A stretch of DNA of 63,933 bases, filler included. It is 7 parts of 7 records of this genome, joined end to end, with 100 filler letters (N's around TTAATTAATTAA, not from the genome) between each part and the next. Parts side by side here need not be neighbours in the genome. Positions count along the whole stretch, not along the records: positions 41,138 to 52,941 come from SRR31156797_12716; 6 more parts are not named here. One strand, given 5' to 3'. The notes beneath the pieces were generated by a model. That model was given only the letters and a program-made list of their open reading frames with translations, made no database searches and was not told the DNA's origin. The translations under genes were made by a program, and so were the position numbers. Numbering within the stretch: position 1 is the stretch's first letter; the number at the start of each line of letters is the position of its first letter. Of this stretch, positions 13,527-51,168 are shown piece by piece.

Positions 13527-14497
13527 TGATCAAACGTATATTACTCATTACCGGTCTTATATTAGCGCTACCTCTCTTTTCCGAACCAGAATACCACATA
13601 TATAAAGGTGAGATATACCATTCAATTAACATGGAGATGAGATTCAATCGACATGATGATAATGTTTTTGGACTCATCGATCTTTCGCGTTTTGGAAGGC
13701 CATTTTCTTTTGAAGGATCTTTTCAAAATGATACGCTATCTGTTCAAACACCATTGGAGATGTTTTTCGTATTGGAGGAAGATCATCTTAAAGCACATAT
13801 CATAGGGAATAAACGAACCTTTCAATTTAATCTTTATCACAAAAAACATTCGCTGAAAGCATTTTCTTTTGAAAAAGAGTATTTTTTGGATGACAAGAAT
13901 CGTCATAGTCCTTCAATGACATATATTTTTAATGGAATTTCATTGAAAGATAGTCGAATATGCAATGTTGACTTACGAATCTTCACAAATCCTGAAAGCT
14001 ATTTTACTCAACAATTTGTGTTTTATCGGGATGATTACCGTAAAATGGAAACACTATATGCAATAGACTCTACATCCACTTCTTTAAATTATTCATATGA
14101 GGACCGCGTCGAGGTCTTATTTGAAAATGAAAAAATAATCTCATTACGCCATAAACATATCTCTTTCACAGGCGGAGCGCATCCAAACAGCGAATCTAAG
14201 CATTGGATTATCGATAAAATGACCGGTAAGATCATAAAATATAATGATCTTTTTATCCATGATGATCCTAAGTTGATAAGAAGATTATCCAGAAAGAGCT
14301 TAACTCGTAGATTCAACTCCAAAAAGCTTGAAGATATTTTGTTTACTGTAGATTATGAGGTTTCAAAAGATGTTTATCTCACAGGAAAAGGTGTGGTATT
14401 CCAGTATGATCCTTATGAGATAGCTCCCTATGTTTACGGACCCATAGAGGTTTTTGTGCCGTATAAGAAACTAAAGGGAATAATTCGAGATCATTGA
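13526..14497 (+). CDS. DUF3298/DUF4163 (RsiV/PdaC-like) exported protein
   Basis: Signal peptide; FTGGAHPN and F.Y.PYEIAPY..G motifs; TAATG coupling to lepA. Confidence 0.8.
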   Translation: MIKRILLITGLILALPLFSEPEYHIYKGEIYHSINMEMRFNRHDDNVFGLIDLSRFGRPFSFEGSFQNDTLSVQTPLEMFFVLEEDHLKAHIIGNKRTFQFNLYHKKHSLKAFSFEKEYFLDDKNRHSPSMTYIFNGISLKDSRICNVDLRIFTNPESYFTQQFVFYRDDYRKMETLYAIDSTSTSLNYSYEDRVEVLFENEKIISLRHKHISFTGGAHPNSESKHWIIDKMTGKIIKYNDLFIHDDPKLIRRLSRKSLTRRFNSKKLEDILFTVDYEVSKDVYLTGKGVVFQYDPYEIAPYVYGPIEVFVPYKKLKGIIRDH

Positions 14498-44171: not shown

Positions 44172-46547
44172 ATGTCTGAAATTAATTCAAGTACAGAGAT
44201 TAATCAGGAATCTAATCTTAAAAAATTCAAGAAACCTTTGATCATTTTTTGGTCTGTTTTTCTTGTGGGGATAATTGCTGTTGTATTATTTTTTGCAGGA
44301 GTATCTAGTGGAAAGTTTGGTTTTATGCCAACATTTGAAGAATTAGAAAATCCTAAAAGTAGTCTTGCGACAGAAATTTATACTGTGGATAATGAATTGA
44401 TCGGAAAATTCTACTTTCAAAATCGATCCTTCGTTGAACATGATGAACTTTCTCCTTTTTTGGTTGATGCGTTAATAGCAACTGAGGATGTTCGTTACGA
44501 AACTCACTCAGGAATTGATGTTAGAGGACTTTTTCGTGTTGCTAAAGGATTGGTTACGGGAAATAAGAATGCTGGTGGAGGTAGTACCATTTCTCAGCAG
44601 TTGGCAAAAATGCTTTTCCCTCGCGAAAGTTTTAAGAATAAATTGGATATCGTATTCAGAAAATTTAGAGAATGGGTTATTGCTGTAAAACTTGAGAGAA
44701 GTTATACAAAAGAAGAAATCATGACAATGTATTTTAATAAGTATGATTTTTTGAATTTGGCTGTTGGAATTAAATCTGCAGCTAATGTATATTTTAATAC
44801 TACTCCCGATTCCTTAAAAATGGAACAGGCTGCTATGTTGGTTGGGATGGCAAAAAACTCATCTTATTTTAATCCTTTACGTCGACCTGAACTTACAAAA
44901 GATAGAAGAAATGTGGTCATGGCTCAGATGGTGAAGTATGATTATTTGGAGAAAGAGGTTTACGATTCTTTAAAAAATCTTCCTTTGGGAATTGATTATC
45001 AGAAAGTGGATCACAAAAGAGGAATGGCTCCTTATTTTAGAGAATATCTTCGTATGTCGTTAACAGCGAAGAAACCAGAGCGAAAAAACTATCCTTCGTG
45101 GAACATGCAAAAGTTTAAATTGGATTCTCTGGAATGGGAAAGTAATCCATTTTATGGTTGGTGTAATAAAAATCAAAAAGCTGATGGCAGCCCATACAAT
45201 ATATATAGAGATGGTTTAAAAATTTATACGACCATTGACTCGCGTATGCAGAAATATGCAGAGCAGGCTGTAGAAGAACATTTAGGGCTGGATCTTCAGA
45301 ATGCTTTCGATCGAGAGAAACAAAATCATAAGAATCCACCTTTTTCGGATGATTTAAATGACGAAGCTGTAGAGCATCAGCTTGATTTGTCGATTCGTAG
45401 AAGTGAAAGGCACCGAGTACTAAAAAAGAAAGGTTTATCGTTCGAGGAGATTAAAGAGAACTTTAAAAAACCTGTTGATATGAAAATATTTACATGGAAA
45501 GGGGAGCGTGATACTCTTTTATCCCCAATGGATTCCATGTTGTATTATAAAGGATTTTTACGTGCTGGTTTCATGTCAATGGTACCACAAACAGGAGAGG
45601 TAAGAGCTTATGTTGGTGGTCCAAACTATAAGCATTTCATGTATGATATGGTTACCTTAGGAAAGCGACAGGTTGGTTCAACAATAAAACCATTTTTATA
45701 TACTTTGGCAATGCAGGAAGGTTTATCTCCTTGCGATAAAGTACCAAATATTCCACAAACCTTTATTTTGCCTGATGGAACACCGTGGACTTCAAGGAAT
45801 TCTACTAAAGCTAGGAGTGGTGAAATGGTAACCCTAAAATGGGGATTAGCCAATTCGGTGAACAACATTTCGGGTTGGGTTTTGAAACAATCTACACCAA
45901 AATCGGTTGTATCTATGGCTCATAAAATGGGAGTAGTTAGTAGAATAGATCCTGTTCCATCAATCTTTTTGGGAACTTCTGAAATATCGGTATACGAAAT
46001 GGTTGGAGCCTACAGTTCTTTTGTGAATAAAGGGGTGTACATTAAACCGCGATTTATTAGTAAGGTTGAAGACAGTAAAGGTAACTTGATAGCACAATCT
46101 GTTCCTCGTAAAAAAGAGGTCATGAACGAGAAAACCGCCTATTTAATGACCAATCTTTTAAGAGGAGTGGTAAATGAAGGTACTGGAAGAAGGTTACGCT
46201 TTAGATATAATTTGTATAATCCAATTGGAGGAAAAACCGGAACTACACAGAATCATTCCGATGGATGGTTTATGGGAATTACTCCTGAGTTAGTATCTGG
46301 AGTTTGGGTTGGTGCTGAAGACAGAGCTGTCCATTTTGAAGGTATTTATTATGGGCAGGGAGCCAATATGGCATTGCCAATTTGGGCATTATACATGCAA
46401 AAAGTATATGCCGACAGAGGTTTGGGTATCTCGCAAGGCGATTTTGAAAAACCAAGAGGCATGATTCTGAATTTAGATTGCGATTCTGAATCTAATGATT
46501 CAAATAACAACGAATTACAGGATTCGGAAGATGAAGATTTCTTTTAG
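44172..46547 (+). CDS. mrcA: Class A penicillin-binding protein 1A
   Basis: EDVRY..H.G.D, GGSTISQQLAK, RK..E; STIK, SVN, KTG. Confidence 0.9.
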   Translation: MSEINSSTEINQESNLKKFKKPLIIFWSVFLVGIIAVVLFFAGVSSGKFGFMPTFEELENPKSSLATEIYTVDNELIGKFYFQNRSFVEHDELSPFLVDALIATEDVRYETHSGIDVRGLFRVAKGLVTGNKNAGGGSTISQQLAKMLFPRESFKNKLDIVFRKFREWVIAVKLERSYTKEEIMTMYFNKYDFLNLAVGIKSAANVYFNTTPDSLKMEQAAMLVGMAKNSSYFNPLRRPELTKDRRNVVMAQMVKYDYLEKEVYDSLKNLPLGIDYQKVDHKRGMAPYFREYLRMSLTAKKPERKNYPSWNMQKFKLDSLEWESNPFYGWCNKNQKADGSPYNIYRDGLKIYTTIDSRMQKYAEQAVEEHLGLDLQNAFDREKQNHKNPPFSDDLNDEAVEHQLDLSIRRSERHRVLKKKGLSFEEIKENFKKPVDMKIFTWKGERDTLLSPMDSMLYYKGFLRAGFMSMVPQTGEVRAYVGGPNYKHFMYDMVTLGKRQVGSTIKPFLYTLAMQEGLSPCDKVPNIPQTFILPDGTPWTSRNSTKARSGEMVTLKWGLANSVNNISGWVLKQSTPKSVVSMAHKMGVVSRIDPVPSIFLGTSEISVYEMVGAYSSFVNKGVYIKPRFISKVEDSKGNLIAQSVPRKKEVMNEKTAYLMTNLLRGVVNEGTGRRLRFRYNLYNPIGGKTGTTQNHSDGWFMGITPELVSGVWVGAEDRAVHFEGIYYGQGANMALPIWALYMQKVYADRGLGISQGDFEKPRGMILNLDCDSESNDSNNNELQDSEDEDFF

Positions 46548-46599
46548 AATTCGAACTTGATTTTTATTGAAAAGATCAATTAATTTTCTTAAAATTGTA

Positions 46600-46780
46600 G
46601 TGCAATATAGGTTTCCGAGAAGGAAATAATAGGGAATCCTGTTTAAATCAGGAGCTGTCCCCGCAGCTGTAAATTCCGATTCAGTTTTGAATCTGTGTTT
46701 TGAACAAATGTTCCACTGTCCGAAGTATTCAGGATGGGAAGGAGTTCAAAGCCGGAATAAGCCAGAAGACCTGCCTGCAT
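46600..46780 (+). ncRNA. Cobalamin (B12) riboswitch
   Basis: AGGT...AATAGGGAATCCTG-TTTAAAT-CAGGAGCTGTCCCCGCAGCTGTAA...CCACTG...GGGAAGG...B12 box AAGCCAGAAGACCTGCC; P1 closure TGCA...TGCA. Confidence 0.93.
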
Positions 46781-46904
46781 TGATGGATTTTAGCTTTCGG
46801 GCGAGAAAAGCGGGAAGATTCAATTTATTCTTTCTAATTCCGACGCTAGCAGATTCGAACTGCCATATTCGAATCGAAAAAAATTCATAGTAACTGTTTA
46901 CTAT

Positions 46905-46937
46905 AGAGGATGTCTTGCCAGGACATCCTCTTTTTTT
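46905..46937 (+). terminator. Strong intrinsic terminator downstream of riboswitch; T-tract overlaps radA stop
   Basis: AGAGGATGTCTT-GCC-AGGACATCCTCT then T run. Confidence 0.85.
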
Positions 46938-48309
46938 ATCTAAAAAGCGTTTGAAACACTTGTCCAACCTTACTTACCAAATGTATTTTGATATTAAATT
47001 TAGAGATATCAAGACCTTTTGAATTGTATTTTGGAATGAATATTTGTTTGAAACCCAACTTTTCAGCTTCGCTAATTCTTTGATCAATTCTGTTTACCGA
47101 ACGAATTTCTCCGGATAAACCAATTTCACCCGCAAAGCAAACTTCTTTAGGAATCGAGATATCGGTGCTAGATGATAGTATGGCTATAATTACCGCTAAA
47201 TCGATAGCCGGGTCGTTTACTTTTATACCACCTGCAATATTTAAAAAGACATCTTTGGTTGAGATTCTAAAGCCCGCACGTTTTTCGAGAACTGCCAAAA
47301 GCATGTTTAACCTTCGCAAGTCGAAACCTGTTGATGAACGCTGGGGTGTTCCGTAAGCGGCGGAACTCACCAATGCCTGAATCTCTATCAGAAAAGGACG
47401 CATACCTTCAATGGATGCTGAAATGGCAGTTCCACTTAAACTTTCATCTTCCTGCGACAGCAGCAATTCTGATGGATTTGAGACTTCTCGTAATCCAGAG
47501 TGTTGCATTTCATATATTCCCATTTCGGAGGTTGATCCAAAACGGTTTTTTGTAGAGCGTAAAATTCGGTACATGTGATTCTGATCGCCTTCGAACTGAA
47601 GAACCGTATCGACCATGTGTTCTAAAATTTTTGGTCCTGCCAGATTTCCATCTTTGGTAATGTGCCCAATTAAAAGAACTGGTACTGCTGATTGTTTGGC
47701 AAATTGAAGCAATTGCGAAGTACATTCTCGAATTTGAGAAACACTTCCAGGTGCTGCCTCTATTTTTTCAGTTGCTAAAGTTTGAATAGAATCGATAACA
47801 ACAATATTTGGCTTGGTATTTTTAATGTGAGAGAAAATGTTTTCCATTAAGGTTTCACTCACAATTAAGCATTTCTCATTATCAGAATTAATTCTGTTAC
47901 CTCTTAGCTTTATTTGCTGTGCACTTTCTTCACCCGAAACGTAAAGAGTGGTAAAATTTTTAAGATGTAAAGCAATTTGTAAAGCCAGAGTAGATTTACC
48001 AATTCCAGGTTCGCCACCTATTAAGATTAAAGATCCTGGCACCAAACCTCCACCCAAGACTCTATTCAACTCCATGTCTTGGGTGTTGAATCGCTTTTCT
48101 TCGGAAGAAGAGATTTCAGAAATTTTAAGCGGTTTGTTTTTAACGCCCTCGCTTGTACCTACAATATTTGTTGATTTTGTTTTCGTAATAATTTCTTCAA
48201 CGAAAGTGTTCCACTCGTTACAAGAAGGACATTTCCCAACCCATTTAGCAGATTCTACTCCACAATTTTGACAAAACCAGGCACTTTTACTTTTTGCTTT
48301 GGCGACCAT
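46936..48309 (-). CDS. radA: DNA repair protein RadA/Sms
   Basis: C4 zinc finger, GGEPGIGKST, KNRFG, Lon-like C-terminal domain. Confidence 0.97.
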   Translation of the reverse strand: MVAKAKSKSAWFCQNCGVESAKWVGKCPSCNEWNTFVEEIITKTKSTNIVGTSEGVKNKPLKISEISSSEEKRFNTQDMELNRVLGGGLVPGSLILIGGEPGIGKSTLALQIALHLKNFTTLYVSGEESAQQIKLRGNRINSDNEKCLIVSETLMENIFSHIKNTKPNIVVIDSIQTLATEKIEAAPGSVSQIRECTSQLLQFAKQSAVPVLLIGHITKDGNLAGPKILEHMVDTVLQFEGDQNHMYRILRSTKNRFGSTSEMGIYEMQHSGLREVSNPSELLLSQEDESLSGTAISASIEGMRPFLIEIQALVSSAAYGTPQRSSTGFDLRRLNMLLAVLEKRAGFRISTKDVFLNIAGGIKVNDPAIDLAVIIAILSSSTDISIPKEVCFAGEIGLSGEIRSVNRIDQRISEAEKLGFKQIFIPKYNSKGLDISKFNIKIHLVSKVGQVFQTLFR

Positions 48310-50358: not shown

Positions 50359-51168
50359 ATGGAAAAGACAAAAGTATTGTTTGTTTCACAAGAAATTACC
50401 CCTTATTTACCTGAAAGTGAAATGTCTGATATCGGAAGACACTTGCCGCAGGGAATTCAGGAAAAAGGAAAAGAAATCAGAACTTTCATGCCTCGATACG
50501 GATGTATTAATGAGAGAAGAAATCAATTGCATGAGGTGATCCGCTTGTCAGGAATGAATTTAATTATTGATGATACAGATCATCCCTTAATAATTAAGGT
50601 GGCTTCGATTCAAGCTGCAAGAATGCAGGTATACTTTATCGATAATGAAGATTATTTTCATAGAAAGAAAGTATTGCTTGATGAAAATGGAGCAGGATTT
50701 GAAGATAATGATGAAAGAGCGATTTTCTTTGCGCGAGGTGTTCTTGAGACTGTTAAGAAATTAAGATGGGCTCCAGATGTAGTGCATTGTCAAGGATGGT
50801 TTACTGGATTGCTTCCATTGTATTTGAAAAAAGCTTTTAACGAAGATCCTTTATTTACAGACACAAAAGTTGTATTCTCAATTTACAATGATGAGTTCGA
50901 GACTCCTTTTAGTTCTGAATTTAAGAATAAAGCAATTATCGAAGGTGTTGAAGCTGACGATGTAAAAGTTTTAGAGGATGCGAATTACGTATCACTTCAT
51001 AAATTAGCAATTGATCAGTCGGATGCTATTATTATGGGAAGTGAAATTATTAATGAAGAAATTAAAGCTTATGCTCAGGCAACAGGGAAACCTTTTATGG
51101 AGTATAAGAACAAAGAAGAATATATCACTGCTTATTCTGAATTTTACGATGAGTTAGTTGCAGAATAA
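50359..51168 (+). CDS. Glycogen/starch synthase N-terminal-domain-only protein (Bacteroidota type)
   Basis: R.FMPRYG.INERRNQLHEVIRLSG, DNDERAIFF, PD.VHC.GW; lacks GT-B C-terminal half. Confidence 0.85.
   Translation: MEKTKVLFVSQEITPYLPESEMSDIGRHLPQGIQEKGKEIRTFMPRYGCINERRNQLHEVIRLSGMNLIIDDTDHPLIIKVASIQAARMQVYFIDNEDYFHRKKVLLDENGAGFEDNDERAIFFARGVLETVKKLRWAPDVVHCQGWFTGLLPLYLKKAFNEDPLFTDTKVVFSIYNDEFETPFSSEFKNKAIIEGVEADDVKVLEDANYVSLHKLAIDQSDAIIMGSEIINEEIKAYAQATGKPFMEYKNKEEYITAYSEFYDELVAE

Follow-up and report, generated by a model that had tools for sequence, protein, structure and literature searches.

What does a cobalamin (vitamin B12) riboswitch control when no gene follows it? This question is raised by positions 46567–46938 of a 63,933-base stretch of DNA from the genome of a marine, Marinifilum-like bacterium (hereafter the window), a short unit lying between the genes for PBP1a and RadA. 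A first-pass annotation had placed a B12 aptamer here with no gene behind it in the sense orientation. Judged by sequence comparison across related genomes, the unit is a real, conserved, gene-less cobalamin-riboswitch RNA. On balance we favour the reading that the unit is a gene in its own right, encoding a stand-alone, B12-sensing non-coding RNA of ~335 nucleotides (nt) that acts in trans. RNAs of this kind have so far been described only in Listeria and Enterococcus, and the present one is probably also a B12-sensing regulatory RNA.

The riboswitch unit and its boundaries

RF00174, the cobalamin riboswitch family, was the sole Rfam match at gathering level across the whole window. Running Infernal with this model confirmed the claim of a complete B12 aptamer: the match spans model positions 1–189 of 189 and, at 98.8 bits (E 1.8e-23), lies well above the gathering score of 31.5 and far beyond chance. 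Homologous aptamers in relatives score 89.8–106.1 bits. We aligned the complete unit from 30 sequences, namely the window and 29 loci of the family Marinifilaceae, and RNAalifold identified covariation in the aptamer helices; two-sided changes occur in 24 of 75 predicted pairs, mostly in the aptamer. The L5 loop reads CCCC (46659–46662). The aptamer carries a long peripheral extension as in class Cbl-I, whose helices covary (alignment columns 85–176), and its sequence suggests a Cbl-I-like assignment. The accessible text of PMC7367189 describes Cbl-I, the adenosylcobalamin type, by a long P6 peripheral extension (P7–P11) and by selectivity for adenosylcobalamin. Cobalamin riboswitches are expected in the 5′ leader of the gene they control; in this case, a terminator ends the unit and no conserved open reading frame (ORF) comes after it.

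The aptamer is preceded by a motif of the Bacteroidetes promoter type. The primary-sigma consensus of these bacteria, as given in the accessible part of PMC7366714, features TAnnTTTG near −7 and TTTG near −33, and TTG-N19/20-TAAA[A/C]TTG is found at the same place in 30/30 homologous units. The copy in the window, TAAAATTG, matches five of the six specified consensus bases, with TTG 20 nt upstream. The “−7” motif of the unit also aligns with the TTTG motifs ahead of other cobalamin riboswitch leaders in the relative G001. Although a sigma-70 scan by itself was not significant (3 sites against 2.6 expected), the promoter-like element proposed earlier gains support from this conservation. Transcription from the unit’s own promoter would start at about 46602–46605. 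An A+T-rich hairpin (TTGATTTTT..AAAAGATCAA, 46553–46589) lies right after the PBP1a stop and overlaps the “−33” TTG; it could be a weak PBP1a terminator, and its sequence is not conserved among relatives.

The other end of the unit is formed by an intrinsic terminator, and the radA stop codon (46936–46938, minus strand) falls inside its T-run, as had been annotated. Each of the 30 units has, ~110 nt beyond the aptamer, a terminator hairpin of −15 to −23 kcal/mol with a U-run behind it, and in the full-length ensembles of all of them this hairpin forms with a probability of 0.93–0.99. Its stem is represented by three unrelated sequences, one shared by Marinifilum and Ancylomarina longa, one in Labilibaculum and one in a divergent group. 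Because these stems are unrelated while the tail upstream of them hardly varies, a conserved antiterminator pairing can be ruled out, and in the folding models the terminator looks constitutive. On the minus strand of the window, 46878–46904 (ATAGTAAACAGTTACTAT then GAATTTTTTT) resembles a weak second radA terminator that is confined to Marinifilum and A. longa.

An ORF scan upheld the statement that no plus-strand gene follows the riboswitch. After the end of PBP1a (46547), the next plus-strand ORFs of at least 100 amino acids (aa) are only 47948–48271 and 50359–51168; the former sits inside radA on the opposite strand, and no credible plus-strand ORF occurs before 50359. The annotation had also offered a regulated peptide, that is, a riboswitch governing translation of a 35-codon ORF (46783–46890) whose ATG stands right after P1 in the window. 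This ORF is broken in relatives: among the 12 units compared, the frame ends after 7 codons in five and is shifted by indels in the rest, giving 23–44 codons with unrelated C-termini. Conservation follows the RNA helices and not the codons. We reject this reading and consider its chance vanishingly small.

Table 1. Positions of the riboswitch unit, its elements and the adjoining genes in the window.
Feature	Position	Strand	Details
PBP1a, class A penicillin-binding protein (upstream neighbour)	44172–46547	+	Pfam Transgly, Transpeptidase
Bacteroidetes-type promoter motif	46567–46597	+	TTG 46567–46569 (“−33”), TAAAATTG 46590–46597 (“−7”)
Cobalamin riboswitch aptamer (RF00174)	46592–46792	+	full-model match, covariation in 30 sequences
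Closing helix, 5′ strand AUGGAUUU	46783–46790	+	RNAalifold columns 201–208 with 307–314
P13/L13 hairpin GCUUU-CGGGCGAGA-AAAGC	46793–46811	+	stem invariant, 30/30
Hairpin H3 (GGGAAGA ... UCUUUCU)	46812–46835	+	single-sequence folds; abuts P13
Linker AAUUCCGACGCUAGCA	46836–46851	+	complementary to UAGC..UCGG at 46791–46800
Hairpin H4 GAUUCGAA-CUGCCAUA-UUCGAAUC	46852–46875	+	two-sided changes in 5/7 pairs
Invariant stretch AAAUUCAU-AGUAACUG	46881–46896	+	same in 30/30 units
Intrinsic terminator, hairpin 46905–46931 and U-run	46905–46938	+	12 pairs, T7 run
radA (downstream neighbour)	46936–48309	−	Pfam; head-on, outside the conserved unit

Conservation, neighbours and origin

RadA of the window shows 95% identity to that of Marinifilum sp. 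RC60d5, and its relatives point to Marinifilum. Rfam scans of 15 Marinifilaceae loci identified the aptamer and tail downstream of radA in 11 (six Marinifilum, A. longa and four Labilibaculum); one miss (L003) corresponds to a contig end, and L013–L015 are without the aptamer. Scans of seven loci from Paludibacter, Bacteroides and other Bacteroidales detected no aptamer. A search with the tail returned one strong copy each in 4/4 genomes. Across 97 genomes of the family, BLAST placed the tail in 29, with one copy per genome, and a covariance model of the tail in 32, again as strong, single-copy matches. Among 401 sampled genomes of the order, the invariant 16/17-mer of the tail stands beside a riboswitch only in the centre genome; the four other matches were dismissed as chance, since they have no RF00174 match nearby and a reversed control gave three. 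Within the genomes searched, the unit is therefore confined to part of the Marinifilaceae and is single-copy there. A further 35-bit match of the covariance model, in G030, was false: it is a terminator that belongs to an unrelated gene and has no aptamer in its vicinity. This terminator (L278 2653–2800) follows a 3-hydroxyacyl-CoA-dehydrogenase-like gene and resembles J1/13-P13 (GGATTTTAGCTTTCAGGGAAGAAAAG).

Misassembly of this junction, considered earlier, is ruled out because the identical junction recurs in 29 other genomes. At those 29 family loci, PBP1a lies directly upstream on the same strand without exception, and the downstream neighbour varies: radA in 15, the gene HU-HIG in seven, a sigma-54 regulator in six and a contig cut in one. 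In a more distant Bacteroidales metagenome-assembled genome (L019), PBP1a and radA converge across a gap of 179 nt, and the aptamer is absent. From this gap and the variable neighbours, we infer that the unit arose in a pre-existing convergent gap and has been kept intact since. The rearrangements fell exactly behind the terminator of the unit. Beyond radA, the minus strand of the window carries a cytidylyltransferase-like gene, panD and panC.

HU-HIG encodes an HU-like DNA-binding protein of 131 aa and is found between the terminator and radA, on the radA strand, in one Marinifilum group (for example L005 7598–7993 (+); likewise L002, L004, L006, L007, L084, L086–L088, L090, L091 and L093). 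It is flanked on both sides by ~230-nt non-coding spacers. In the divergent group (L104–L109; L106 1749–3083 (+)), a co-directional sigma-54-dependent response regulator with Response_reg, Sigma54_activat and HTH_8 domains replaces radA after the unit, and a promoter-like TAATTTTG motif of its own is positioned ~45 nt ahead of its ATG.

These neighbours bear on an arrangement like that of AspocR, which the accessible part of PMC8079631 presents as a B12-riboswitch-controlled antisense RNA to pocR in Listeria monocytogenes with an early terminator. The riboswitch would here choose between termination and read-through; the read-through product would be antisense to radA or to the HU-like gene or, in the divergent group, would enter the sigma-54 regulator in the sense orientation. 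Besides the precedent itself, the head-on arrangement with radA in the window and in 15/29 family loci, the overlap of the T-run with the radA stop, and an RNA-library contig of a relative that extends 74 nt beyond the terminator are consistent with this arrangement. As in AspocR, the riboswitch faces a gene head-on, and there is a short form, terminated after a few hundred nt. In contrast, AspocR works by B12-controlled read-through into a fixed target, whereas here the opposite gene varies and the terminator, with its distance from the aptamer, its three unrelated stems and its high predicted probability in all 30 units, looks constitutive; the sigma-54 regulator, moreover, has its own promoter-like motif. 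With the downstream neighbour so variable, antisense control of radA, as the annotation had proposed, is not supported as the conserved function, and we regard an AspocR-like role as quite improbable.

Selection on the unit was gauged against synonymous divergence in PBP1a. Identity to the window at its fourfold-degenerate sites is 0.30–0.47 (0.66 for a conspecific genome), compared with 0.82–0.98 for the tail, or 0.61–0.64 in the six divergent units, and 0.71–0.95 for the aptamer. By these sequence measures, the tail is under purifying selection and no less constrained than the aptamer. The unit has been kept in three or more genera. Together with the single copy per genome and the conserved promoter and terminator, this supports the stand-alone sRNA (small RNA) of ~340 nt that was among the earlier suggestions; on the B12 sponge suggested alongside it, the results speak neither for nor against.

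We also compared the unit with the ordinary riboswitch leaders of these bacteria. Four relatives contain 9, 9, 3 and 8 RF00174 matches, respectively. Each of the eight other aptamers of G001 has a P13-like hairpin with a GGG-type loop behind it and then, after 24–507 nt as measured by a simple ORF scan, an ORF. The ORF after leader L115 is NrdD according to Pfam; by N-terminal sequence only, the others are apparent TonB-dependent receptors, a CobI-like gene, a carboxyltransferase, a transporter and a lipoprotein. Two of these aptamers, L118 and L120 (C2:710700–714942), lie 2.5 kb apart, and behind each of them 420–510 nt pass without an ORF of at least 80 aa until the next long ORF; short ORFs or further non-coding tails may be present there.

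The closest paralogue of the aptamer and P13 is the G001 nrdD leader (74% identity over 228 nt), and the likeness stops after P13. The aptamer class and the promoter-to-aptamer spacing are common to both, the P13/L13 hairpin is nearly identical (UAGCUUUCGGG..AAAAGC), and a downstream segment of the nrdD leader can likewise pair with the 5′ side of P13. The ordinary Cbl-I leaders differ in running into genes (NrdD, TonB-dependent receptors, the CobI-like gene and others), whereas the present RNA stops at a terminator and carries a conserved 3′ module of its own, consisting of H4 and the invariant 16-mer. Based on this likeness, the RNA probably arose through duplication of an mRNA leader and gained its own 3′ module. 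The same likeness would suit a decaying leader left after the loss of a B12-related gene, such as the deleted btuB-like gene suggested by the annotation. However, comparison of this interval revealed a B12 gene at the site in no relative examined, and the unit persists in at least three genera with a tail 82–98% identical where neutral sites are saturated. Both promoter and terminator have been maintained, the latter by complete replacement of its stem. Since constraint on the tail equals or exceeds that on the aptamer, we reject a decaying remnant as very improbable and in effect excluded.

The 3′ domain and a proposed B12 switch

The tail (~125 nt) folds as a closed domain in the RNAalifold analysis of the 30 sequences. 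Overall, 97.4% of its cells pair, against 25–65% when the partners are slid, and six pairs change on both sides. The closing helix is formed by AUGGAUUU with AAAUUCAU and was found by RNAalifold unprompted; 99.2% of its cells are paired, and its changes are one-sided only, from G-U to A-U. Its 5′ strand also carries the ATG of the non-conserved 35-codon ORF. No Rfam family matched the tail above the cut-off, and at E values up to 10 there were just sub-threshold, terminator-driven matches. A tRNA- or tmRNA-like fold of the four-helix tail was rejected by a negative ARAGORN result.

Of the three small hairpins that the annotation had listed in this region, two stood up to comparison. GCTTTC..GAAAAGC corresponds to the invariant P13/L13 hairpin, and GATTCGAA..TTCGAATC to H4, in which most pairs change on both sides and the loop conserves GCCA. 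The third, ATAGTAA..TTACTAT, can form in the window, but Labilibaculum and the divergent group have lost its 3′ half while its 5′ half is invariant; this hairpin is thus not conserved and cannot explain that invariance. H3, which was not among the three, keeps GRAAG/CUUUC in all three clades as judged by eye, the alignment being shifted there in the divergent group.

The L13 loop keeps GG(G/U) across units and is GGG in the window. By analogy with other cobalamin riboswitches, it is the presumed kissing-loop partner of the CCCC loop L5. The accessible text of PMC7367189 treats the L5–L13 kissing loop as general to these riboswitches and as coupling ligand binding to the expression platform. 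At the sequence level, a P13/L13 hairpin able to kiss L5 does follow the present aptamer, with GGG in one loop and CCCC in the other.

The 3′ end of the tail contains the invariant stretch. In six divergent units a single A is inserted between its two halves, AAAUUCAU(A)AGUAACUG. The first eight bases represent the 3′ strand of the closing helix, and the last eight (AGUAACUG) are predicted to be largely single-stranded, with a mean unpaired probability of 0.55. We consider this stretch a candidate output or seed element.

The 5′ two-thirds of the RNA are the complete aptamer and the 3′ third is a conserved structured domain, comprising P13/L13, two more hairpins and the closing helix, followed by the invariant 16 nt and an apparently constitutive terminator. 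In the mechanism that we propose, the RNA most likely acts in trans, with mRNA start regions or a protein as its partner, and B12 most likely works via the usual P13 switch and not via control of termination. With the ligand bound, L13 would be held on L5 and P13 stabilised; the linker (AUUCCGAYGCUA) would thereby be freed from an alternative helix, and the state of the invariant stretch would change, as would that of the closing helix, which holds AAAUUCAU and would be closed by B12.

Folding predictions are compatible with several of these steps. P13 is mostly unformed in ligand-free ensembles (mean probability 0.12), and the commonest alternative partner of UAGC..UCGG (46791–46800) is the linker segment CCGA.GCUA (46840–46848), seen in 8–11 of the 30 sequences. 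Such pairing between the linker and the 5′ strand of P13 forms a candidate alternative (“apo”) helix; 95.7% of cells are compatible with it, compared with 16–41% when slid. Forcing P13 to form raised linker accessibility by 0.3–0.4 and favoured the closing helix. The terminator at the end of the unit was the single terminator-like site in a scan of 46300–47300, and no U-run follows P13 or H3.

Somewhat more tentatively, the finished RNA may itself be the object of switching. It would then be an allosteric sRNA in which B12 locks P13 and gates the accessibility of a trans-acting module, made up of the linker and the invariant anti-start-codon stretch AAAAUUCAU-AGUAACUG. Under such an arrangement, mRNAs without a riboswitch of their own would join the B12 regulon and so extend it. 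We hold this form of the model as possible but doubtful.

Precedents, opposing evidence and candidate partners

The closest precedents are EutX of Enterococcus faecalis and Rli55 of Listeria monocytogenes, both B12-riboswitch sRNAs (DebRoy 2014 and Mellin 2014, cited in PMC12121620; PMC8079631). As outlined in the accessible part of PMC8079631, a riboswitch-controlled early terminator gives rise to short and long forms, and ANTAR-binding hairpins of the long form sequester EutV. Like them, the present RNA has a 5′ cobalamin aptamer on a non-coding RNA, no gene in cis and a module, functional in EutX and Rli55, located 3′ of the aptamer, and its expected role would likewise be trans-regulatory activity coupled to B12 supply. 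It differs in belonging to Bacteroidota and in the sequence of its tail. ANTAR sites are characterised by a pair of hexaloop hairpins, as found in EutX and Rli55, whereas the loops here are of 8–9 nt in H4 and ~10 in H3. EutX and Rli55 lie next to the eut operon, in contrast to the neighbours PBP1a, radA and the panCD genes of the present unit. Their terminator is internal, while the only terminator-like site of the present RNA is at the very end of the unit, so that any gating would have to be conformational.

A second comparison is offered by terminated S-adenosylmethionine (SAM) riboswitches that act in trans, SreA and SreB of Listeria (PMC8079631, accessible part), and by the SAM-I riboswitch/sRNA of Desulfovibrio (10.1101/803072, accessible part). 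As described in these sources, a riboswitch-bearing RNA stopped by a terminator controls a different mRNA in trans, which resembles what we propose. Their own downstream genes are still regulated in cis, however, whereas the present RNA is without one.

Searches of the open literature returned no description of such an RNA in Bacteroidota and no paper joining Marinifilaceae and riboswitch. The known riboswitch-headed regulatory RNAs are a handful from Firmicutes, and in each of these the riboswitch acts through early termination of transcription. If our reading is correct, the phenomenon extends to Bacteroidota, in a form without an internal terminator and with a structured, strongly conserved output domain, and provides a natural case where ligand binding may gate a finished RNA. 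The unit also represents an unannotated gene that genome pipelines class as an ordinary cis-regulatory riboswitch. B12 is traded in marine sediment communities, and a trans-acting B12 sensor could reveal B12-tied genes missed by riboswitch-based regulons.

Hints of expression come from Logan contigs of four RNA-labelled runs (metatranscriptome or transcriptome libraries) from three studies, which cover 46620–46900. Near-identical contigs span 46653–46899 (X1, three differences) and 46621–46709 and 46783–46861 (X3, no differences), and contigs from two studies start at 46618–46621. We consider this cover a weak hint, and gave no weight to gaps along the stretch or to contig depths.

Several observations weigh against an independent, trans-acting RNA. 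Strand, transcript ends and expression level cannot be read from the contigs, RNA libraries can contain DNA, and no sequencing run shared half of the sampled words of the stretch. One contig of a relative (X5, 46620–47010, 22 differences) passes the terminator into radA. Neither P13 nor the alternative helix changes on both sides in any pair, so the switch rests on analogy and folding, and the closing helix, with its one-sided changes, has a mean probability of 0.25 in free ensembles. No partner was found: the best duplex matches in the 2,105 start regions of G001 were chance or unspecific, and the complement of the 17-mer with up to three mismatches was not commoner than a reversed control in five genomes.

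The constant linkage to PBP1a in 30/30 units would also suit a role as the 3′ untranslated region, 3′ end or a cis element of the PBP1a mRNA. Where rearrangements have occurred, it is PBP1a and not radA that remained beside the unit, our scan criteria identified no terminator between the PBP1a stop and the aptamer, and an RNA-library contig (X3, 46408–46639) bridges the end of PBP1a into the aptamer. In opposition to this, the −33/−7 motif intervenes between PBP1a and the aptamer in all units and its “−7” part aligns with those of the other riboswitch leaders of the relative. L019 has PBP1a without the aptamer, which indicates that PBP1a does not need the unit. To our knowledge, no link between B12 and PBP1a has been reported. 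A related possibility is an abundant aptamer that buffers or stores B12, with a tail that merely stabilises it; this would leave the invariant 16-nt stretch, predicted to be partly single-stranded, and the covarying hairpin unexplained. We regard these roles, taken together, as unlikely, and continue to favour a stand-alone RNA acting in trans.

For such an RNA we looked for mRNA partners by scanning four tail segments against the 2,105 start regions of G001, based on 2,108 ORFs called in 2.76 Mb (59%) of that genome. A long antisense target was rejected: ACAGTTACTATGAATTT, allowing up to three mismatches, gave 34–49 matches per genome against 20–43 for the reversed control in five genomes, and none with fewer than two mismatches besides the unit itself. 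Within the window, ACAGTTACTATGAATTT with up to three mismatches identifies only the unit. The strongest duplex, 15 perfect pairs between H4 and a ClC-type channel gene (−21.9 kcal/mol; L138 ~13735–13750, G001 C1, minus strand), was attributed to chance, as it lies inside the coding region; the match is not kept in G069, G002, G003 and G004, and the sRNA of G051 no longer matches. An EamA-like gene was rejected because the match concerns an internal Met, and the rpsM and acpH-like start regions were also among the duplex matches.

The invariant 3′ segment finds its best match at the start of tgt (−16.0 kcal/mol, z −4.2), where sRNA AAAAUUCAU..ACUGUUU would pair with AAACAGU..AUGGAUUUU. The start-codon half of this match is present in 6/6 RNA-bearing genomes and the upstream half only in three Marinifilum genomes. 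Comparison of the tgt loci (L268–L272 against L281–L285) showed that the protein starts with MDFKL (ATGGATTTTAAA) in 6/6 RNA-bearing genomes, compared with MKYTL or MHYTL in 5/5 family genomes without the RNA, where the DNA reads ATGAAATA(T/C), ATGAAGTAT or ATGCATTAT. The first nine bases of tgt in RNA-bearing genomes equal the RNA’s own AUGGAUUUU. Against this lead, 21 of 2,085 genes in G001 pair 9/9 with AAAAUUCAU and 121 pair at least 8/9, and the 6/6 versus 0/5 contrast represents a single clade, possibly one event. Complement k-mers are enriched ~3-fold in start regions (31 against 8–10 for 9-mers), an excess due for the most part to the frequent UAUGAA context of start codons. QueG, a B12-dependent enzyme that completes queuosine synthesis, was identified in 5/5 RNA-bearing genomes tested, and the B12-independent QueH in 0/5. 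Queuosine modification of tRNA is a concrete, if weak, lead to a partner of this RNA.

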